The notes beneath the pieces were generated by a model. It was not told where the DNA came from and did no database searches. It was given only the letters and a program-made list of their open reading frames with translations. From assembly GCA_045541555.1 (NCBI GenBank), contig JAZQJH010000036.1, forward strand, positions 44,650 through 108,649: a stretch of DNA of 64,000 nucleotides. Reading direction: 5' to 3'. Positions 21,825-45,079 of this stretch are shown here, one piece after another. Numbering within the stretch: the first letter of the stretch is position 1; each line of letters starts with the position of its first letter. The translations under genes and the position numbers were made by a program. The DNA comes from Eubacteriales bacterium (GTDB lineage Bacteria > Bacillota > Clostridia > Oscillospirales > QAKW01).

Positions 21825-22823
21825 ATGAAAATTGTTAAAGCATTCAAACACCAGTTTGGTGAAAACAGCAAGAAGGCCGACAAAAGAATGTGGGGCTATC
21901 TTGCTACTAAGTTTATTGGTAATCTTACAATTGCATTGATTCTGATTGGTCTTTCTTATATCATTCTCTACCCCTTGATCTACAGTATTTCTCAGGCTGT
22001 CCGTTCTCAGTTGGATATGTATGATACGACGATCATCTATATCCCCAAGCACTTCACTCTTGAGAACTTCAAGTTGGCTTGGCGCGTACTGGAGTTCCCC
22101 GCAGCGCTGTCTAATACGTTCCACCTTTCCATCTGGCCGACTCTTTTGCAGGTTTGCTCTTGTGCCTTGGCTGGTTATGGATTTGCACGGTTCAAATTTG
22201 TGGGTAAGAATCTTTTGTTCTTCCTGGTATTGCTGACGATCATCGTACCGCCCTCTACCATCATGGTTCCTCTGTATACGAATTTCCGTATGTTTGATCC
22301 TCTGTATATCGCAACTGCGATGCATTCCTTTGGATGGATCAAGGAGCCCTATCTGATTTTGACGGACTCCCTCTGGTGCTTCCTGCTTCCTGCTTTGCTG
22401 GCGGCAGGTTTGAAGAGCGGTTTGTTTGTGTTCGTTTACCGTCAGTTCTTTAGCGGTTTCCCCAAGGAATTGGAAGAGGCTGCTTACATCGATGGTTGCG
22501 GCGCCATGAAGACCTTCTTGCGCATCTTGGTTCCCAATGCAGCACCTGCATTCGTTACGGTGTTCTTGTTCTGTATCGTATGGTATTGGAACGATTACTA
22601 CACCATTCCGATGTTCGTACCGAATATGCAGACCCTGCCTGACGCATTGGGTAACATGTACTCCACGATGACCGGTGAAACGTTTAGAGGTGAAGATGCA
22701 ATTTCCCTCTATCCGATTCTGCGTGCCGGTATTATTCTGTATATCACTCCGCTGTTGATTACATTTATTCTATTGCAGAAGAAGTTTACGGAATCTATTG
22801 CACGAAGCGGTATCGTTGGTTAA
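21825..22823 (+). CDS. Carbohydrate ABC transporter permease
   Basis: ELEEAAYIDGCG EAA motif. Confidence 0.92.
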   Translation: MKIVKAFKHQFGENSKKADKRMWGYLATKFIGNLTIALILIGLSYIILYPLIYSISQAVRSQLDMYDTTIIYIPKHFTLENFKLAWRVLEFPAALSNTFHLSIWPTLLQVCSCALAGYGFARFKFVGKNLLFFLVLLTIIVPPSTIMVPLYTNFRMFDPLYIATAMHSFGWIKEPYLILTDSLWCFLLPALLAAGLKSGLFVFVYRQFFSGFPKELEEAAYIDGCGAMKTFLRILVPNAAPAFVTVFLFCIVWYWNDYYTIPMFVPNMQTLPDALGNMYSTMTGETFRGEDAISLYPILRAGIILYITPLLITFILLQKKFTESIARSGIVG

Positions 22824-22845
22824 TCATATTGATTATATGTACATT

Positions 22846-22882
22846 AATATCCCCTATGGTATCTACCATAGGGGATATTTTT
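22846..22882. terminator. Bidirectional terminator closing the import operon
   Basis: aatatcccctatggt-atct-accataggggatattttt. Confidence 0.9.
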
Positions 22883-22887
22883 CGTTT

Positions 22888-23052
22888 TTAGAAATTCATA
22901 TGCTCCACAAAATTACCGACTGCTTTAATGGCATTTCCGGCGGTTTTAGTCATGCACTTTTTGGGTTTACTTTTAAGCGCAAGCATGCTGGCAGTTGCTC
23001 CTAAGGCTGCGCCGGCAATCATGGAAAACATCATTGTTTTTGTTTGCTTCAT
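22888..23052 (-). CDS. Unannotated 54-aa membrane-anchored protein
   Basis: RBS AAAGGGA; MKQTKTMMFSMIAGAALGATASMLALKSKPKKCMTKTAGNAIKAVGNFVEHMNF; ends at the terminator. Confidence 0.75.
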   Translation of the reverse strand: MKQTKTMMFSMIAGAALGATASMLALKSKPKKCMTKTAGNAIKAVGNFVEHMNF

Positions 23053-23106
23053 TTTATCATCCCTTTCTCGTTAGTAATATTAGTATACCAAATGTGGTGT
23101 TTTATA

Positions 23107-23155
23107 TTTACATTTGACACGGAATATAGTATAATAAATCTGTATAATTGTCGAA
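23107..23155 (+). promoter_or_regulatory. SigA promoter with a downstream Spo0A-box-like heptamer
   Basis: TTTACA(23107)-17 bp-TATAAT(23130); TGTCGAA at 23149-23155. Confidence 0.5.
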
Positions 23156-23199
23156 ATTTTTGATCTTTGGAATTTTTTGTTTTATAATGAGGTTTTTAT

Positions 23200-25413
23200 A
23201 TGCGGATTTATCAGATGGAAAAAGAAGAAGTGGCCGCTTTGCTGAATACCGATCTTGAACGTGGAAAGGAACTTCATCCGATTCGTGAAAAAAAGAATGG
23301 ATGGAGAAATGTGACTTCTTTTTTTAGCGGTCTTTTTTCGTTGCTTAAAGGAAAGTTTTATTATGTAAACATCATATTGATGGTCAGCTATTTTATAGCA
23401 GGTGTTTTTTCGTGGCTGAACCACTCTTGGGGGTTGCTTTATCTGACGATAGCGGCCGTCGTATTGACTTTTTTGCTTTATATTTTAGAGGGGATACTAC
23501 TTCATATTTATAAAAAGAAATATCATGACCGGAGTATTTGTGATTCCCAAAAAGTACAAGCTCTCCGTTTTGGAAATACGGTTGAGCTTGAACCGGATGA
23601 ATTAGTGGTTGGTGATCTGATTTGTTTGCAGACGGGTACACTTCTTTATTGTGATGCGCGTATTATTGAGAGTAATGATCTTTTCTCTGAGGAAAAGACG
23701 GTCTTTGGAACGACAATTCCGCTTGAAAAGAATGCATCTTCCATTCAAGAAGAAAACATTCCTCCTGAAAAACAAAGAAATATGCTTTGGAAAGGAAGTT
23801 ATATTTCGAGCGGTAAAGGACTTGCGATTGTAACGGCGATTGGGGCTGAATGCTATATTGCTAAAACCGGCGGTCGTAAAAGCCGTAAGCAACGTTCTTT
23901 CTTCTATAATAGACAAAACAATATCGGGCATATTGCATCTTACGTTTATATTATTATCTGCGCATTGTGTTTGCTTATTGCAGCATTATTTACCAAGAAG
24001 TTTGTCGAGGCGTTCCTGCTGATGGGTGTGCTTTCTTCGTTGATGCTTCTTAATCCGGTTTCTTGCTTGATGGAGTGGACCTACTATCGCATTGCGGCGC
24101 GGTTTTATCAGCAAGGTATCTTAATTCGGAATATCGAAGCGTTTGATGGGATGAATAAAGAAAAGGAACTTTATTTTGACGCTGATAAACTGATTACGAA
24201 TCAGTTGCGCTATTCTCATACGATTGATTTCCAAGGAACAGAAAAAAGTACGGTTTCTTATTTTTCTCTTTGCATGGGCTCCGGTTATTTTGCGAATGAA
24301 TTGGGAAGTGTCCTTTCGAAATATGATCTTACTTATGAAAAGTTGGATCGTAGCTTTCCGGTGTTTCGACGTGAAACGGATGAGGAGGGGAATGTTTTTA
24401 GCCTCTTTTCCAAGTCGGGAAGCTCGGTGGTTGTGGCCGCCGGCTATTGGAAGAAAATGCTTCCTTTAGTTCAGGAATTGGGGGAGGAATTATTAGAGCA
24501 AATTCACGAGCTTGAACTTCATGGAAAAATGGTTTATATCATGGCCAGTGATTCCATGGATTTCATTCCCAATAAATTGGAGTTTTCTCGCTTTATGGGG
24601 AATATGGTTCTTTCATCGTTGGTGGTGTTTGACTTGCCCGTTAATCAAGAAGTTCTTGCGATGATTGGTCAGTTGCGCCATTCATCTATGAAGGTTCATT
24701 TGATTTCGGATTATTCCGAAGCACTTGGAAAAACCTTGGCAAGATCCTATGATATGGATGGTTTCTTGTCTCTGCCGCCCAATCGACCCTGCTACTCGAT
24801 TCCGCATTCGGACGGCAATTCTTTAGTGGTATATAAAGATCATTCTTCACCCATCGACCGGGATCAGGCGATGGTTGTGTTAGAAAACGGAGTTGCTGCT
24901 CAAAACTTGGTTTACAGAGTGAAATGTATGTTCTGCGGAATCAGAAGATGCCTAAATTTTCTTGCTATTTCTGGTGCTTTTTTGATCTTTACAGTAATGG
25001 CTCTTTTTTTGGCGAATGTGTCGATGGAAAAAATATTATTCCCTGTTTTGGCGTTGACTCCGGTATTGATTTGTCCTTGTTATTATTTAATTGAGAGCGT
25101 TAGAAACTGTAATCAATACAGACGGAGTTTAATATTGGGGATGTTTTGCGGTTCCGCCGGATTTGTCGCTGCGTTGATCGGATGCGATGCGGCGATTTTA
25201 GCGTTTGGTTTATCGACAGTTCTGCTTTCCGGATATTTCTTGTTTTCCGGTGCAAAGCATCGTGCTGTTACAAAAGGGAGCATCATCATTCTGGCGGTTG
25301 CTTTCGTAGTGGCGATCTTGCCGTTTGTCTTTATCGGTGTAAACTGGTTACCGGCGATTTTATTGTCCCTTTTTCCTGCACTGGGGGCTTTTGTTTTGGA
25401 TCTATTTTATTGA
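23200..25413 (+). CDS. Degenerate P-type (P2-like) ATPase homolog, catalytic motifs lost
   Basis: Actuator-domain similarity (DELVVGDLICL, DARIIES, NMLWKGSYISSGKGLAIVTAIG); TGES reads FGTT, DKTGT reads DADKL, no GDGxND. Confidence 0.8.
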   Translation: MRIYQMEKEEVAALLNTDLERGKELHPIREKKNGWRNVTSFFSGLFSLLKGKFYYVNIILMVSYFIAGVFSWLNHSWGLLYLTIAAVVLTFLLYILEGILLHIYKKKYHDRSICDSQKVQALRFGNTVELEPDELVVGDLICLQTGTLLYCDARIIESNDLFSEEKTVFGTTIPLEKNASSIQEENIPPEKQRNMLWKGSYISSGKGLAIVTAIGAECYIAKTGGRKSRKQRSFFYNRQNNIGHIASYVYIIICALCLLIAALFTKKFVEAFLLMGVLSSLMLLNPVSCLMEWTYYRIAARFYQQGILIRNIEAFDGMNKEKELYFDADKLITNQLRYSHTIDFQGTEKSTVSYFSLCMGSGYFANELGSVLSKYDLTYEKLDRSFPVFRRETDEEGNVFSLFSKSGSSVVVAAGYWKKMLPLVQELGEELLEQIHELELHGKMVYIMASDSMDFIPNKLEFSRFMGNMVLSSLVVFDLPVNQEVLAMIGQLRHSSMKVHLISDYSEALGKTLARSYDMDGFLSLPPNRPCYSIPHSDGNSLVVYKDHSSPIDRDQAMVVLENGVAAQNLVYRVKCMFCGIRRCLNFLAISGAFLIFTVMALFLANVSMEKILFPVLALTPVLICPCYYLIESVRNCNQYRRSLILGMFCGSAGFVAALIGCDAAILAFGLSTVLLSGYFLFSGAKHRAVTKGSIIILAVAFVVAILPFVFIGVNWLPAILLSLFPALGAFVLDLFY

Positions 25414-25428
25414 TCAAGGAGACTATGA

Positions 25429-26178
25429 ATGGAATTTGAAGAGAAAAAACAGTCTGAATTAGTTTTTGGTAAAAATAATGTAACGGAATTGCTGCTTTCC
25501 GATGCAACGGTTGAACGTATTTATCTTGCCGGCGATCCTAAAAGTAATAATTTTAAAAAGATCATTGCTCTTTGCAAAACCAAAGGGGTTCCTATTGTTC
25601 ATACCGACACCAATGCAATCAATCGCAAGGCGCCGAAGGTCAATCATCAAGGGGTGATTGCATATTGTGCCGAAAAGGAGTATGCAACTGTTGAGGATAT
25701 TCTAAAGGCTGCAGAAGAACGGGGAGAGGCTCCGTTTATTATTGTGGCCGATGAAATTGTTGATCCGCATAATTTGGGCGCAATTCTGCGTTCTGCAGAC
25801 GCATTTGGTGCGCATGGCGTGATTATTTCCAAGCGGCGTGCAGTCGGTTTGACTCCTTCGGTTGCAAAAGCCAGTGGTGGTGCAATCCACTATATTCCGG
25901 TGGCCAGAGTTGCAAATTTGGTGCAGACTATCGAGGATTTGAAAAAGAAGAATATATGGGTGTACGGATGCGATATGGCCGGAGAAAATGTCTATTATGA
26001 GCAGGATTATTCCGGTGGAGTTGCATTAATCGTGGGAAGCGAAGAATCGGGTATATCTCGTTTGCTGCGCGAACAATGCGACTTTTTTGTCAGAATTCCA
26101 ATGAAAGGGAAGATTTCCTGCTTGAACGCTTCCGTCGCAGCATCTGTTATTATGCAGGAGATTGCTAAAAATCGTTAA
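25429..26178 (+). CDS. rlmB: 23S rRNA (Gm2251) methyltransferase, TrmH/SpoU family
   Basis: NHQGVIA, DPHNLGAILRSA, VGSEESG, CLNASVAA. Confidence 0.92.
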   Translation: MEFEEKKQSELVFGKNNVTELLLSDATVERIYLAGDPKSNNFKKIIALCKTKGVPIVHTDTNAINRKAPKVNHQGVIAYCAEKEYATVEDILKAAEERGEAPFIIVADEIVDPHNLGAILRSADAFGAHGVIISKRRAVGLTPSVAKASGGAIHYIPVARVANLVQTIEDLKKKNIWVYGCDMAGENVYYEQDYSGGVALIVGSEESGISRLLREQCDFFVRIPMKGKISCLNASVAASVIMQEIAKNR

Positions 26179-26195
26179 TTGAGTGAGGATAAAGA

Positions 26196-28229
26196 ATGAG
26201 TTTTGAACCGAAAGACTCAAAATCTACATTAGATGAGATCATGGCAAAAATCAATGAGATTCAGCAGGAAAGCCAAGCAGAGGAATCTACAAAGCGGTTG
26301 ATCCATGACCATGATAAAGTTTTAAATGAGGCGGAGGATGTCCCTTTTCCGATTGATGAAGAACTTTTTGATTTGATCAAAGAGGAAAGAACGGTTTCTG
26401 CCGAACCCGAAAAGGAAAAATCGGTCATACGACGTTTATTGGACGGGGAAGAGGACGAGAACGAAGAACACGAAGAGCCTGTGACTCGTTCTATCATTTT
26501 CGATGATGTGCCGGAGAATATCGCGGATATTGAAGATTTTGAGGCAGAAGAGGATCGCGATGAAATCTATCGCGATTTGAAAAACACCGTAGGAAAAATG
26601 GCAGTGAAGATGATTTTTATCTTCTTTATCTGCTTGGTGTCCATTTATCTTTTTGTTGCCGGATTTCATCCTGCTTTATTTGGTGGGAATGTTGACACCC
26701 CTTGGTTTGATGCGGCTTTCTTGGCGGTGGACGCACTTTGCATCTTTGTTTCTTTTGGTATTTTTACGCAAGGTCTCGGTCATTTGCTTCGTTTACGTGC
26801 AGATACTGATACGTTATTGGCGTTGCTTTCGATTTCGTTGGTGATCGTGCGTGTGATTGCACTGATTAAACCCGATCTTTTTGATTATGAGCTTAGTTTT
26901 GAGCCAATGCTGACGATCGGACTTCTTTATAATGTGATTGCCAAGAAGAAGATTGCAACTAACATTAAAAAGAACTTTAAATTTATTTCAACTTCGGGAG
27001 ATAAGCTGACAGCAACGGCTCCTCCTTCTTGCGAAGTGAATAATGATGTGATATTGGAGACCGGGGAGGGCGGAGAGATCGTCTATGCACATTCCACCGG
27101 ATTGGTTTCAAAGTTTATTGACCATAGTTACAGTGATTTTGAGTGGGATTCCAAGCTTCAGCATTTTTTCTTTGTAATCTTAGTCGCTGTGGTGGCTGGC
27201 ACTATTGTAGTATCGCAATTGACCGGTTGGGGGGCAGCTCTTTTATTTCCGTCTGCGGCAATATCTATCACGACCCCGTTTTTTTCGCGTTATTTCTATG
27301 CGAATTCAATGGCAAAGATCGGCAAAAAAACACGTAAAAATGGCGGAATTCTAACTTCTGCAAATTCAGCAAAAGAACTCTTTAATTCTGATTTAGTCGT
27401 ACTTTCCGAAGAAGATTTCCTGGGAAACGAAGCGGTCTTACTGCAGGGAGTGAAGGCGATGGGAGACGTTCAGATTGATGATTTGATCACCAATATCGCG
27501 GCGCTGTTTAATGCAGTGGGGACTCCTCTGAAGCCTCTTTTTTTAAAGATGATCGATCAAAACAGTGTTTCTTTGCCCCGCGTGGATGATATTTATTACC
27601 ACGAAGGGATGGGATACACCTGTTTGATCCACAGTAAAATGTTCTTGGTCGGGAATGATCGTCTGATGGAAAAGTTTAATATCGACTTTCCAAAAGCTTT
27701 GAAAGAGTTGAAGCTGAAGGACTGCAGATTTCCTGTATATGTGGCCTATCAATGTTTACCTGCGGGTATTTTTATTGCCAGTTATGAAAGGAATAAGCAT
27801 ACCGAAGCGATGGTGCACCTGGCTGAAGAGGGGCAGATCGGCATTGGAATTGTATCGAAAGACTTTCTCTTTGACCGTGATCTCTTGAAACGTCTTTATC
27901 CGGGTGTTCAATCCGAATTATTCCATTTCTTGTCTGCAAAAACCGGCTCTGCATGCTCGCCGCTTTTAGAGAGAGTTTCTAAGTCTCCGGATTTGATTGG
28001 TTCCGTTACCGGTGCCAGAGGAATATTCTCTTGCTTGAATGGCGCAAAAAAATTGGTTTCTGCTTTAAAAATCAATACAATTATTCGTGTTTTATACCCA
28101 ATTTTAGCGTTGGCGTTGATCTTTTTTATCGCTTTGGCCGGTTATTCTGCCAATACAGCTTTGCAAATTTTGGCGTTTCAGGCAATTTGGTTTATCCCGG
28201 TTGCTGTGATTTGTACTTTTTGCAAATAA
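26196..28229 (+). CDS. Degenerate P1B-like ATPase homolog with acidic N-terminal domain
   Basis: DTDTLLAL, FPSAAISITTP (CPC position), SDLVVLSEED (DKTGT position), EGMG..FLVGNDRLM. Confidence 0.65.
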   Translation: MSFEPKDSKSTLDEIMAKINEIQQESQAEESTKRLIHDHDKVLNEAEDVPFPIDEELFDLIKEERTVSAEPEKEKSVIRRLLDGEEDENEEHEEPVTRSIIFDDVPENIADIEDFEAEEDRDEIYRDLKNTVGKMAVKMIFIFFICLVSIYLFVAGFHPALFGGNVDTPWFDAAFLAVDALCIFVSFGIFTQGLGHLLRLRADTDTLLALLSISLVIVRVIALIKPDLFDYELSFEPMLTIGLLYNVIAKKKIATNIKKNFKFISTSGDKLTATAPPSCEVNNDVILETGEGGEIVYAHSTGLVSKFIDHSYSDFEWDSKLQHFFFVILVAVVAGTIVVSQLTGWGAALLFPSAAISITTPFFSRYFYANSMAKIGKKTRKNGGILTSANSAKELFNSDLVVLSEEDFLGNEAVLLQGVKAMGDVQIDDLITNIAALFNAVGTPLKPLFLKMIDQNSVSLPRVDDIYYHEGMGYTCLIHSKMFLVGNDRLMEKFNIDFPKALKELKLKDCRFPVYVAYQCLPAGIFIASYERNKHTEAMVHLAEEGQIGIGIVSKDFLFDRDLLKRLYPGVQSELFHFLSAKTGSACSPLLERVSKSPDLIGSVTGARGIFSCLNGAKKLVSALKINTIIRVLYPILALALIFFIALAGYSANTALQILAFQAIWFIPVAVICTFCK

Positions 28230-28241
28230 TTATTTAAATGC

Positions 28242-28270
28242 TTGCATTTTGTTTGGTGATATTGTATAAT
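28242..28270 (+). promoter_or_regulatory. SigA promoter of the EF-G paralog
   Basis: TTGCAT-17 bp-TATAAT. Confidence 0.75.
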
Positions 28271-28325
28271 GTATTCATGAATTATTTTTAGCGTTCCATC
28301 CGGAGTCGCGAAAGGAGATCTAATC

Positions 28326-30377
28326 ATGAGCACACCTGCAAAAGACATTCGTAACGTATGTTTGATCGGTCATAAAGGGAATGGTAAAACTACCCTGGCC
28401 GAGTCTATGCTTTATTTCAGTAAAATAATCGAACGGTTAGGTAAGACCGAGCAAGGTAATACGATTCTCGATTTTGACGCTGAAGAAATTAAGCGTAAAT
28501 GTTCGATTTCTCTTTCGATGGCTTCTTTTGAATATAAGAAGACCAAGATTAATTTGATTGATGTTCCCGGCAACTATGATTATGAAGGCGATCAGCTTTC
28601 CGGTCTGGAAGTGGCCGATCTTGCATTGATTGTTCTTAATGCAAAGAATACCGTCTCTGTCGGTACCGAAAAAGCTTGGCAGAAAACCGAGAAGAAGATG
28701 ATGCCACGTGCATTCTTTATTGCAGGCTTGGACGATGAAAATTCCGACTTTTATAGTATTGTTGAGCAGTTGCACGCTAAATTTGGTGCAAATCAGATTC
28801 TGCCGATTACCTTACCGATCATTGAGGATAATAAACTGGTCGGTACGGTAAACGTTATTACCAATGAAGGTTATCGTTTTGGTCAGGGTGTTGTGCCTGT
28901 TCCCGCTAATATGCAGGATAAGGTTAATACTTATTATCATTCCGCACTGGAGGCAATTGCCGAGACGGATGATGCTTTGATGGATAAATTCTTTGCAGAT
29001 GAAGAGTTTACCAAGGATGAGTTGGGCGAGGGCCTGAAAAAAGCAGTCGCAATGCGCTTGATCTATCCCATCTTCTGCGGTGTGCCGACGGAAGTTCGCG
29101 GTATTTATCAGTTGCTGGAGGCGATTGTGGATTATTTCCCCACTCCTCTTTGCAATGGTGCTACCAAGGCTCTTAAAAATGGAGATGAGGTTGATCTGGA
29201 GTGTAATCCTGACGGGCCCATGGTCCTGCGCGTATTCAAAACTGTAGCCGACCCGTTTGTGGGAAAGATGTCTTTCTTCAAGGTGTACTCCGGTACGGTT
29301 AAAAAGGATAAATCGTATCTGAATACAAAACGCGGCGAAAGCGAAAAGATTGCTCATGTTTATACGCCGTTTGGTAAAAAGCAAAATGAAGTTGATGAAT
29401 TGCAAGCCGGCGATATTGGCGTATTTACTAAACTTTCCATTACCGGTACCTCAGACGTGCTTTGTGATAAAGATTTTCCGGTTACAATTCCGGCGATCGA
29501 ATTCCCGAAAGCAAATTATAGTAAGGCGGTCATCTCCAAGGCAAAAGGCGATGAAGAAAAGATTGCTCAAGGTATTAACCGCATGATCGAAGAGGATCCT
29601 ACCCTTAAAATGAAGGTGGATGCTGAAACCAAGCAGATGGTTCTCTCGGGTTTCGGCGATCTTCAATTGGATGTCGTTGTATCGAAGCTTGCTTCTAAGT
29701 TTGGTGTTAATGTGGAATTGGGAGAAGTGAAAGTACCTTATCGCGAAGCAATCCGCAAGAAAGTTAAGGTGGAAGGAAAGCATAAGAAGCAGTCCGGCGG
29801 TCATGGTCAGTATGGTCATGTGTGGATTGAGTTTGAGCCGCTGTATGAAGGTGAATTTGAATTTGCCGAGTCGGTATTTGGCGGTGCTGTGCCGAAGAAC
29901 TATTTCCCGGCAGTTGAAAAGGGGTTGCGTGAGTCTATTACAAAGGGTGTTTTGGCCGGTTATCCTGTGACCGGTTTGAAGGCGACCTTGCTGGATGGTT
30001 CATATCACCCGGTTGATTCTTCTGAAATGGCGTTTAAGACTGCGGCATCGATCGCCTTTAAAGAGGGTATGAAGGCTGCCAATCCCGTCCTTTTGGAGCC
30101 GGTTGGTTCTCTTACCGTTCATGTATCGGATGCTTTGATGGGCGATATTATTGGAGATATTAATAAGCGTCGTGGTCAAATTCTTTCGATGGATGCTTCT
30201 GAAACCAGAGGCTATAAGATCGTTACCGCTACAGTTCCGATGAGCGAAATGAATTCTTATGCAATGGATCTTAGAAGCATGACCCATGCACGTGCTACCT
30301 TTAACCTTGAGTTTTTGGAGTATCGTGAGGCTCCGGCGAACATCACGCAAAAGGTTATCGCTGAAAAAGCAGAATAA
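28326..30377 (+). CDS. fusA2: Elongation factor G paralog (EF-G2-like)
   Basis: GHKGNGKT, EEDPT, PYRE, KKQSGGHGQYG, GSYHPVDSSEMAF; not in the str operon. Confidence 0.9.
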   Translation: MSTPAKDIRNVCLIGHKGNGKTTLAESMLYFSKIIERLGKTEQGNTILDFDAEEIKRKCSISLSMASFEYKKTKINLIDVPGNYDYEGDQLSGLEVADLALIVLNAKNTVSVGTEKAWQKTEKKMMPRAFFIAGLDDENSDFYSIVEQLHAKFGANQILPITLPIIEDNKLVGTVNVITNEGYRFGQGVVPVPANMQDKVNTYYHSALEAIAETDDALMDKFFADEEFTKDELGEGLKKAVAMRLIYPIFCGVPTEVRGIYQLLEAIVDYFPTPLCNGATKALKNGDEVDLECNPDGPMVLRVFKTVADPFVGKMSFFKVYSGTVKKDKSYLNTKRGESEKIAHVYTPFGKKQNEVDELQAGDIGVFTKLSITGTSDVLCDKDFPVTIPAIEFPKANYSKAVISKAKGDEEKIAQGINRMIEEDPTLKMKVDAETKQMVLSGFGDLQLDVVVSKLASKFGVNVELGEVKVPYREAIRKKVKVEGKHKKQSGGHGQYGHVWIEFEPLYEGEFEFAESVFGGAVPKNYFPAVEKGLRESITKGVLAGYPVTGLKATLLDGSYHPVDSSEMAFKTAASIAFKEGMKAANPVLLEPVGSLTVHVSDALMGDIIGDINKRRGQILSMDASETRGYKIVTATVPMSEMNSYAMDLRSMTHARATFNLEFLEYREAPANITQKVIAEKAE

Positions 30378-44521: not shown

Positions 44522-45079
44522 ATGAAAATTAACAAAAGACAAATTGTATTTTTATCCTTGGCGCTGGTGGTTTGCATCGCAGTTTACTTGAATTGGCGTT
44601 TTCTTAATAATGTTGATATGGATGAAAGTATGGTGCCGGTCGAAAATGGCGCGGTTCAAGAAAACGTTGAGGAGGGGAAAACCTTAGGTCAGGCTCAACT
44701 GGTTGAAACGGTGGCAAAGGATGTGACGGCATATTTTACGGAATGCAGAATGAATAAACAGCAGACAAGAGATGAGGCTTTAGAGTTGCTTAAGTCCGTC
44801 GCGGATAGTGAAGATTCGACGACTGAAACCAAGGAAAAAGCCAATAATGACATGATTGCGATGGCGAAAACAACTGATGTTGAGGGAACCATCGAAAGCC
44901 TTGTAAAGGCAAAAGGCTTTACGGATTGTATGGTTTATATTAGTGACGAAGCCGTGAACGTTGTAGTGGCATCGTCGGGACTTTCCTCAGAGCAGGCGGC
45001 ACAGATCAATGAAATCGTCATTTCGGAGTCGGGGCATGATGCTGCGGCAATCAAAATTGTGGAGATCAAAACGGAGTGA
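44522..45079 (+). CDS. spoIIIAH: Stage III sporulation protein AH
   Basis: YFTECRMNKQQTRDE, IESLVKAKGFTDCMV. Confidence 0.9.
   Translation: MKINKRQIVFLSLALVVCIAVYLNWRFLNNVDMDESMVPVENGAVQENVEEGKTLGQAQLVETVAKDVTAYFTECRMNKQQTRDEALELLKSVADSEDSTTETKEKANNDMIAMAKTTDVEGTIESLVKAKGFTDCMVYISDEAVNVVVASSGLSSEQAAQINEIVISESGHDAAAIKIVEIKTE

Follow-up and report, generated by a model that had tools for sequence, protein, structure and literature searches.

The window, as the whole 64,000-nucleotide stretch analysed here is called (positions 44,650 to 108,649 of contig JAZQJH010000036.1, assembly GCA_045541555.1, from an Eubacteriales bacterium of the GTDB order Oscillospirales), carries a compact three-gene unit in which two homologues of P-type ATPases, pA1 and pA2, enclose rlmB, a gene for an rRNA methyltransferase (Table 1). 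The element of interest is pA1, which appears to be a dead pump, that is a pseudoenzyme of Ca2+/Mg2+-type (P2/P3) descent. The second homologue, pA2, seems dead as well and is derived from copper-type (P1B) pumps. Just 5' of the unit lie its promoter and a divergent gene for a small membrane protein, and 3' of it lies a gene for a paralogue of the elongation factor EF-G.

Table 1. Features of the pA1 locus and orthologues of pA1 in three genera (g1, the genus of the window, g2 and g4). Positions are those of the window unless a locus is named; amino acid (aa) numbers are those of pA1.
Feature	Position	Strand	Remarks
Terminator hairpin (15-bp stem and T run)	22846..22879	+	Ends the upstream ABC-importer operon and separates it from the pA1 unit
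54-aa small membrane protein	22888..23052	-	Divergent from pA1; hydrophobic, Gly/Ala-rich N-terminal half
Sigma-A-type promoter, TTTACA-N17-TATAAT	23107..23135	+	Serves the pA1-rlmB-pA2 unit
pA1	23200..25413	+	737-aa catalytically dead P2/P3-type ATPase homologue; ten predicted transmembrane (TM) helices; A, P and N domains
pA1 actuator (A) domain, aa 117-274	23548..24021	+	Best-preserved part by Pfam PF00122, hhalign and dN/dS
pA1 former TGES loop, aa 169-172	23704-23715		Reads FGTT
pA1 former phosphorylation motif DADKLIT, aa 327-333	24178..24198	+	D327 at the phospho-Asp position, not conserved
pA1 K-C-M-F-C-G (CxxC), aa 575-580	24922..24939	+	Genus-specific; cytoplasmic stalk at the start of M5
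rlmB-type SpoU/TrmH rRNA 2'-O-methyltransferase	25429..26178	+	16 nt after pA1
pA2	26196..28229	+	677-aa dead P1B (copper-type) ATPase homologue; 18 nt after rlmB
EF-G paralogue	28326..30377	+	Second of two in the genome; 3' of pA2; context only
pA1 orthologues of g2	L034 7083-9698; also L110-L112	- (L034)	4 species; 871-879 aa; 41-68% identical; partly decayed
pA1 orthologues of g4			7 species; 792-831 aa; every motif lost
pA1 orthologues of g1			26 species; ~737 aa; every motif lost and GDGxND segment deleted

The pA1 gene is an open reading frame of 737 codons that starts at an ATG and has no interruption, as a sequence-only reading made before this analysis had described, and the clear actuator domain also claimed there is the sole Pfam match of the protein (PF00122, E1-E2_ATPase, E 8e-16). 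All the NCBIfam P-type ATPase models match pA1, with scores around one tenth of what the cut-offs ask; MgtA scores highest (TIGR01524, 65.9 against 610.75 bits), and TIGR01494 gives 18.9 bits where its cut-off is 62.3. A phmmer search of the PDB finds MgtA (1e-14), LMCA1, SPCA1, SERCA and the Na,K-ATPase, and does so over aa ~60-350 only. A comparison of 19 pA1 orthologues with 14 genuine P2 pumps by hhalign reaches a probability of 99.9% (E 6.8e-35) over columns 2-619, and it is this alignment that fixes the motif correspondences given below, M6 lying outside the aligned range. The AlphaFold2 (AF2) model made with 19 orthologues (pLDDT 87.7, pTM 0.81) has ten TM helices and three cytoplasmic domains, and Foldseek aligns it at full length with MgtA (E 3.9e-25), LMCA1, the Na,K-ATPase, SPCA1 and SERCA. 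The A, P and N domains and the ten-helix M domain of a P-type ATPase are all there, and such a full-length predicted fold from an open frame of 737 codons is far beyond chance. The host genome retains four intact pumps, two of the P2/P3 type and two P1B pumps with a CPC motif. In a maximum-likelihood (ML) tree, which was a quick search and contains long branches, the clade of dead proteins is sister to a clade with the genome's own intact 893-aa P2 pump (SH-aLRT 98).

Within this preserved architecture all seven signature motifs of the P-type ATPases are replaced or deleted. The TGES loop of pA1 is FG[TSKA]T across the orthologues, with the Glu in none; PEGL of M4 reads NPVS, the Glu now being V/I; DKTGTLT reads D(A)DKLIT, with D327 aligned on D373 of MgtA and the Lys, Thr and Gly of DKTGT absent (43 orthologues); KGAPE reads AGYW ([AVT]GYW in orthologues), DPPR has become DLPV and TGD has become SDY; and nothing is left of the GDGVNDAPALK segment. 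At the positions of the M5 cation ligands, N768 and E771 in SERCA, stand S/G and L/F. What would mark a functional pump is lacking throughout, namely DKTGT, TGES, the nucleotide/Mg2+ site, the M4/M5 ligands and a score above the family cut-off. The sequence-only reading had listed TGES, DKTGTLT, KGA and TGD as replaced and GDGxND as absent, and had concluded that pA1 is not a pump; the alignment with the P2 pumps agrees on each motif, and with the residues of the phospho-cycle and of the M4/M5 cation site all gone the conclusion stands. Its statement that the M4 PEGL is missing was slightly overstated, as the Glu is lost while the helix-breaking Pro286 is retained in at least 90% of orthologues.

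The phosphorylation site itself had been given a more particular interpretation, in which DKTGT had become the DAD of a haloacid dehalogenase (HAD)-like enzyme and pA1 might be a repurposed phosphatase. The P domain of P-type ATPases does have a HAD fold, and the sequence at aa 327-331 is D-A-D-K-L in pA1 of the window and in its closest relatives. Across 43 orthologues, however, position 327 is D in 27, E in 8, N in 6 and S in 2, position 329 is D in 12 and takes 11 different residues, only 7 orthologues carry DxD, and Leu stands at the fifth position, so that the family lacks the DxDx[TV] of HAD motif I. Motifs II and IV fare no better: the TGD region is SDY or variable, the motif II Thr reading Ser or something else, and the GDGxND segment with its Mg2+-binding Asp is deleted. 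The surrounding region is constrained as judged by the ratio of non-synonymous to synonymous substitution rates (dN/dS), and hence the variability is specific to positions 327 and 329. Because these two positions vary, DxD is confined to so few orthologues and the other HAD elements are replaced or deleted, the DAD of the window's pA1 is a lineage accident and not a conserved motif; neither the motif nor the phosphatase claim is borne out, and the alignment of orthologues refutes the phosphatase idea at the level of the family.

For all the loss of its catalytic motifs, pA1 is not in decay. A search of 5.8 billion proteins returns 36 pA1 orthologues of 688-737 aa (all but one 725-737), ranging from 100% to 34% identity, and directly after them come real pumps at E ~1e-17. 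Full-length pA1 is intact in 26 of the 30 species genomes of g1, a single GTDB genus, and three of the four genomes without it are less than 90% complete. By the Nei-Gojobori method on the six least-saturated (closest) ortholog pairs, dN/dS is 0.10-0.17 for pA1, 0.05-0.07 for pA2, 0.02-0.04 for rlmB and 0.015-0.03 for the EF-G paralogue. Within pA1 the ratio is below 0.35 in all domains except the 30-residue N-terminus, where one pair gives 0.51; it is 0.03-0.10 in M3-M4, 0.02-0.11 in the N-terminal half of the P domain that holds the dead phosphorylation site, 0.07-0.16 in the A domain and 0.05-0.15 in M5-M10, M1-M2 and the N-terminus being the least constrained parts. pA1 is under purifying selection in all domains. 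The ortholog alignment with dN/dS that the sequence-only reading had suggested as a check thus finds no neutral decay, and its remark that a stop-free frame suggests selection was sound. It had taken the gene by itself, whereas most can be learned from the operon partners (rlmB and the second dead pump), the graded series in the sister genera and the genus-specific Cys motifs. At the same time pA1 is the fastest-evolving gene of the locus, with identities of 32-80% against 78-97% for EF-G and 76-96% for RlmB.

New motifs are conserved within the genus. These are C218-Y-x-x-K-T-G-G-R on the linker from the A domain to M3, N-I-E-A-F-D-G immediately ahead of the old phosphorylation site, G-Y-W and H-G-K in the N domain, K-C-M-F-C-G in the S5 stalk, R-N-C-N-Q in the L6-7 loop, and the terminal L-D-L-F-Y. 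Constraint is strongest at the hub through which, in real pumps, P domain and membrane are coupled; it comprises M3-M4, S5, L6-7 and, within the P domain, the N-terminal half.

The promoter assigned to the unit matches the consensus at 11 of 12 positions, and neither hexamer varies among 10 orthologous upstream regions; a second promoter-like site at 23160-23188 is not conserved. The three genes follow one another closely (Table 1), no internal terminator of note was found within the unit, and the order pA1-rlmB-pA2 is kept in all orthologous loci. The rlmB gene between the pump homologues is the only close rlmB copy in the genome. Riboswitch-type control upstream was considered and rejected, since no riboswitch or other known RNA element, such as the M-box as for mgtA-type genes, is found at E <= 1 in 22700-28500. 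Sporulation-type regulation was likewise rejected, the conserved promoter being sigma-A-like, and so was a role in anti-phage defence, PADLOC giving no match for pA1, pA2 or the small protein.

Recognition of pA2 as a P-type ATPase homologue depends on profiles and on a model. A Pfam scan gives no match, and the profile of the pA2 family finds the Cu-ATPases HMA4, CopA and CopB in the PDB (best 1.7e-4, HMA4) and is colinear with Legionella CopA (3rfu). The AF2 model (pLDDT 80.6) aligns by Foldseek at full length with CopA (4bbj, 3.8e-16), ATP7B, ZntA and KdpB. The DKTGT position reads SEEDFL, the N-terminus is acidic and disordered (aa 46-114, pLDDT <50), and the C-terminus is a genus-specific invariant CxFCK. 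pA1 and pA2 as recent paralogues were rejected, as hhalign gives a probability of 0.7% and the two fall in different subfamilies (MgtA/LMCA1 for pA1, CopA/ATP7B for pA2); pA2, being P1B-derived where pA1 is P2/P3-derived, is to all appearances dead independently of it. The dead P1B family to which pA2 belongs resembles pA1 in having the P-type fold without the catalytic motifs, in sharing the operon, in being under purifying selection and in occurring in uncultured gut Clostridia, and it differs in this independent origin, in its rate, pA1 evolving about twice as fast as pA2, and in its distribution. A narrow pA2 profile matches 55 of 201 genomes of the order, and the dead P1B family adjoins rlmB order-wide: all 20 of the loci examined in other families have rlmB directly 5' of pA2. 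A pA1 gene linked to rlmB is limited to a single GTDB family and its close relatives. None of those 20 loci has a P2-like gene within ~8 kb of rlmB-pA2, and a P2-like partner 5' of rlmB in the other families of the order was accordingly rejected.

The triad with both pump homologues intact is present in the window, in all complete g1 loci and in g2 and g4, which belong to the window's GTDB family, and also in the genomes that carry the representatives P0207 and P0191, from two further genera. Motif states read from explicit motif tables of the orthologues differ by genus in a graded way. In g2 DKTG[TVI]LT and KG[TAS]PE are kept in 4/4 orthologues and [TS]GD in 3/4 (the fourth has TED), TGES is lost (TSEN, TGKP, SDAS, SDAT), GDGxND is lost (GESVDD, GDVVSD, GNKASD), and the PEGL Glu is lost in 2/4, which makes these proteins candidate 'phosphorylatable but not dephosphorylating' intermediates. 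In g4 and g1 no motif is left, and the length of pA1 falls across the genera from ~870 to ~800 to 737 aa. Close g2 and g4 pairs have dN/dS of 0.10-0.12. In the ML tree g1 groups with g4 as its sister, each on a long stem (1.2 substitutions per site for g1, 0.9 for g4), and the two fall within a wider, well-supported clade of P2-like proteins that are degenerate in part or in full. Among the best 150 representatives that match the pA1 profile, ~120 are full-length (>=680 aa); ~28 of these are without the DKTGT Asp-Lys, and ~20 more full-length proteins retain the Asp-Lys and have lost TGES or GDGxND. Some of these degenerate P2-like proteins sit in unrelated gene neighbourhoods, and degenerate P2-like ATPase genes unlinked to rlmB occur in three of eight sampled genomes of other families (L092 of G227, L093 of G214 and L096 of G099), an example of their motif set being TGDN/MPFV/DKSAVVA/SSD. 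Because such proteins turn up in unrelated neighbourhoods and in other families, dead or dying P2-type pumps appear to be recurrent in these Clostridia, and pA1 of the window is the most reduced form seen.

Some hints of a partnership with pA2 come from conserved cysteines and from correlated divergence. C637 of the RNCNQ motif together with KCMFCG forms a new conserved Cys set in g1; both Cys of K-C-M-[FLI]-C-G are present in 21/23 g1 loci, and the C-terminal C-x-F-C-K of pA2 in 23/23. Outside g1 these motifs occur in 0/6 pA1 and 0/26 pA2 sequences. By homology both would be cytoplasmic and near the membrane, in the S5 stalk of pA1 and at the end of the last TM helix of pA2. The pairwise non-synonymous distances of the two proteins are also correlated, with r = 0.83, and the partial r remains 0.69 after rlmB and EF-G are regressed out, the corresponding controls being 0.17 for pA1-rlmB and 0.01 for pA2-rlmB.

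The 54-aa protein encoded on the opposite strand is possibly a small partner in the pA1 system, and may be inferred as such from its position and conservation. It is 78-96% identical and at the same position in all g1 loci, being far more conserved than pA1, has the C-terminal motif KTAGxAxxAxGxFxEHMxF, and its Shine-Dalgarno region is invariant in the alignment of upstream regions. A g4 homologue, 41-46% identical, is also divergent from pA1, and there the ABC operon is not adjacent; the g2 homologue lies on a different contig. Weaker homologues occur in 33 of 201 genomes of the order, some of them not adjoining pA1. The only Pfam match is a weak one to DUF6944 (E 0.003).

The reading preferred here, held with about even confidence, is that pA1 serves in the membrane without catalysis, as a scaffold for pA2 or as its conformational partner, and acts neither as a transporter nor as a phosphatase. 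On this reading pA1 keeps the complete ten-helix A/P/N architecture of its Ca2+/Mg2+-type ancestor and has lost the ability to hold nucleotide, to be phosphorylated on Asp and dephosphorylated again, and to ligate cations at the canonical M4/M5 sites. It would be encoded by the first gene transcribed from the sigma-A-type promoter of the pA1-rlmB-pA2 operon and would work with pA2, to which it might be linked through the jointly gained Cys motifs on the cytoplasmic face of the membrane, and the 54-aa divergent peptide may take part. The physical partnership of pA1 with pA2, a link to RlmB or the ribosome, and the action of the complex are what we infer from this arrangement. Since the constraint on pA1 peaks in the hub between head and membrane, a coupling or docking role is more attractive than that of an inert spacer. 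In a bolder and doubtful version, pA1 and pA2 would form a dedicated heteromeric complex, held in g1 by a Cys4 metal clasp composed of KCMFCG in the pA1 S5 stalk and CxFCK at the pA2 C-terminus, and tuned by the 54-aa peptide. Such a complex would reuse the old E1/E2-like coupling of head to membrane to change conformation without ATP, acting on RlmB and the EF-G paralogue or in concert with them.

Several observations weigh against a partnership with pA2. The co-gain of the Cys motifs is a single event on one stem branch, and g1-specific conserved Cys are found also in RlmB (C49, C181, C231) and in EF-G (C293). In SERCA S5 and L6-7 are in contact, and C576 and C579 of pA1 with C637 could form a purely intramolecular site. 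The mirror-tree correlation is suggestive only, as it can arise where both fast-evolving proteins track the phylogeny better than their slow neighbours do. That pA1 evolves 3-5x faster than its neighbours fits a loosely constrained role. Finally, the rlmB-pA2 loci of other families, 20 of 20 of which are without a P2-like gene nearby, indicate that pA2 does not generally need pA1.

Each of the alternatives to the pA2-partner reading is judged less likely than it. One is that pA1 is a passive transporter, a channel, or a sensor of ions or ligands, in which the TM domain binds or conducts and the head reports without ATP. The strong constraint on the TM segments M3-M4 and M5-M10 speaks for this, M4 Pro286 and the nearby Glu292 are nearly invariant, and the coupling hub holds the most conserved of the new motifs (NIEAFDG, KCMFCG and RNCNQ). 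However the canonical ligands are gone, with the M4 Glu now hydrophobic and the M5 Asn and Glu replaced by Ser/Gly and Leu/Phe, the partly conserved CPC of M6 is lost in divergent orthologues, and the upstream region yielded no riboswitch or metal-responsive element, and this explanation is unlikely. Less probable again is that pA1 is a regulatory pseudo-subunit of a genuine pump, for example of the intact 893-aa P2-type ATPase. Dead paralogues modulate their partners in other enzyme families, the 893-aa pump belongs to the sister clade of the dead clade, and MgtA, the best structural match of pA1, is dimeric in its solved structures (8uy7/8uy8); against this the intact pumps are unlinked, on contigs C2 and C10, and the linkage of pA1 is with rlmB and pA2.

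That pA1 is a functionless, slowly decaying relic kept open as the head of the rlmB operon would account for its being the fastest-evolving gene of the locus and for the shrinkage across the genera. It is nonetheless very improbable, for dN/dS is low in all domains, no disrupted copies were seen among ~26 species, the new motifs are invariant within the genus and the full AF2 fold is confident, and a mere operon spacer would not conserve its protein sequence. A repurposed HAD-like phosphatase, with the DAD as the DxD pair of nucleophile and acid/base, is the least credible of all given the ortholog variation at that site.

pA1 shares the full-length architecture of the P2A/P2 Ca2+ ATPases and of the P3B pump MgtA (Listeria LMCA1 6zhf/6zhh, SERCA1a, SPCA1 8iwp, E. 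coli MgtA 8uy7/8uy8). Like them it has the Cation_ATPase_N start, the A domain, M1-M10 and the P and N domains, and it keeps the A-domain framework (GD..L..G...PAD.R, NM..G) and the M4 proline. Unlike them it has lost, or has deleted, TGES, DKTGT, KGAPE, DPPR, TGD, GDGxND, the PEGL Glu and the M5 ligands, and it is ~130-160 residues shorter. Some P4-ATPase-like domains of guanylate cyclases have degenerate catalytic motifs. Such domains, fused to guanylate cyclases in Apicomplexa, ciliates and stramenopiles (PMC6592433; bioRxiv 10.1101/2020.09.07.285734; PMC13466520), are the nearest published analogues found, in that a P-type scaffold is put to a role other than classical ion pumping; they are eukaryotic, of the flippase type and fused to a cyclase, whereas pA1 is a bacterial protein of the P2/P3 type that stands alone and shares its operon with another dead pump. 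A published dead, pseudo or degenerate P-type ATPase of bacteria was not found in full-text literature searches, and a term search of the 2023 Journal of Biological Chemistry review 'P-type ATPases: many more enigmas left to solve' gave no mention of one.

Small regulators encoded beside pumps offer a parallel for the 54-aa peptide. P-type ATPases have small regulators with a single TM helix, among them KdpF, MgtS and MgtR. Sarcolipin and phospholamban are small TM regulators found with SERCA (PDB 4h1w, 4y3u), and the 54-aa peptide is likewise encoded beside a P2-type homologue, its gene being conserved there in two genera. It has no sequence similarity to sarcolipin, phospholamban, KdpF, MgtS or MgtR, and the likeness is one of gene position only.

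New in this analysis are the measurements of selection on pA1, the disproof of the DxD idea, the graded series, the co-gain of the Cys motifs and the small peptide. P-type ATPases are among the best-understood membrane enzymes, and here a family keeps the fold after loss of the whole phospho-cycle. The locus combines a dead P2/P3 pump under selection, its pairing in an operon with a dead P1B pump and a housekeeping rRNA methylase, and graded orthologues, and so lets one ask what use the scaffold has after pumping and in which order a pump is dismantled. A heteromeric pA1-pA2 complex, if true, would be the first of its kind, a P-type ATPase complex without catalysis, to be described from bacteria, and the three genera would then record in natural steps the passage from phosphorylatable forms to those that are fully dead. 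For annotation there is a warning, as genes of this kind go under the name 'cation-translocating ATPase' or remain hypothetical proteins.

Of the neighbouring genes, the EF-G paralogue follows pA2 in the family f1 and in 7 of 20 loci of other families. In the genus with P0191 an IMPDH gene takes the place of EF-G 3' of pA2, and a GtrA-family gene (L088 5560-5985, +) lies between the small-peptide gene and pA1, the triad being kept while its flanks vary. The Cys residues C49, C181 and C231 of RlmB, conserved in g1, are rare in RlmB of other genera of the order (8-23%), and their gain falls on the stem branch where the Cys motifs of pA1 and pA2 also arose.

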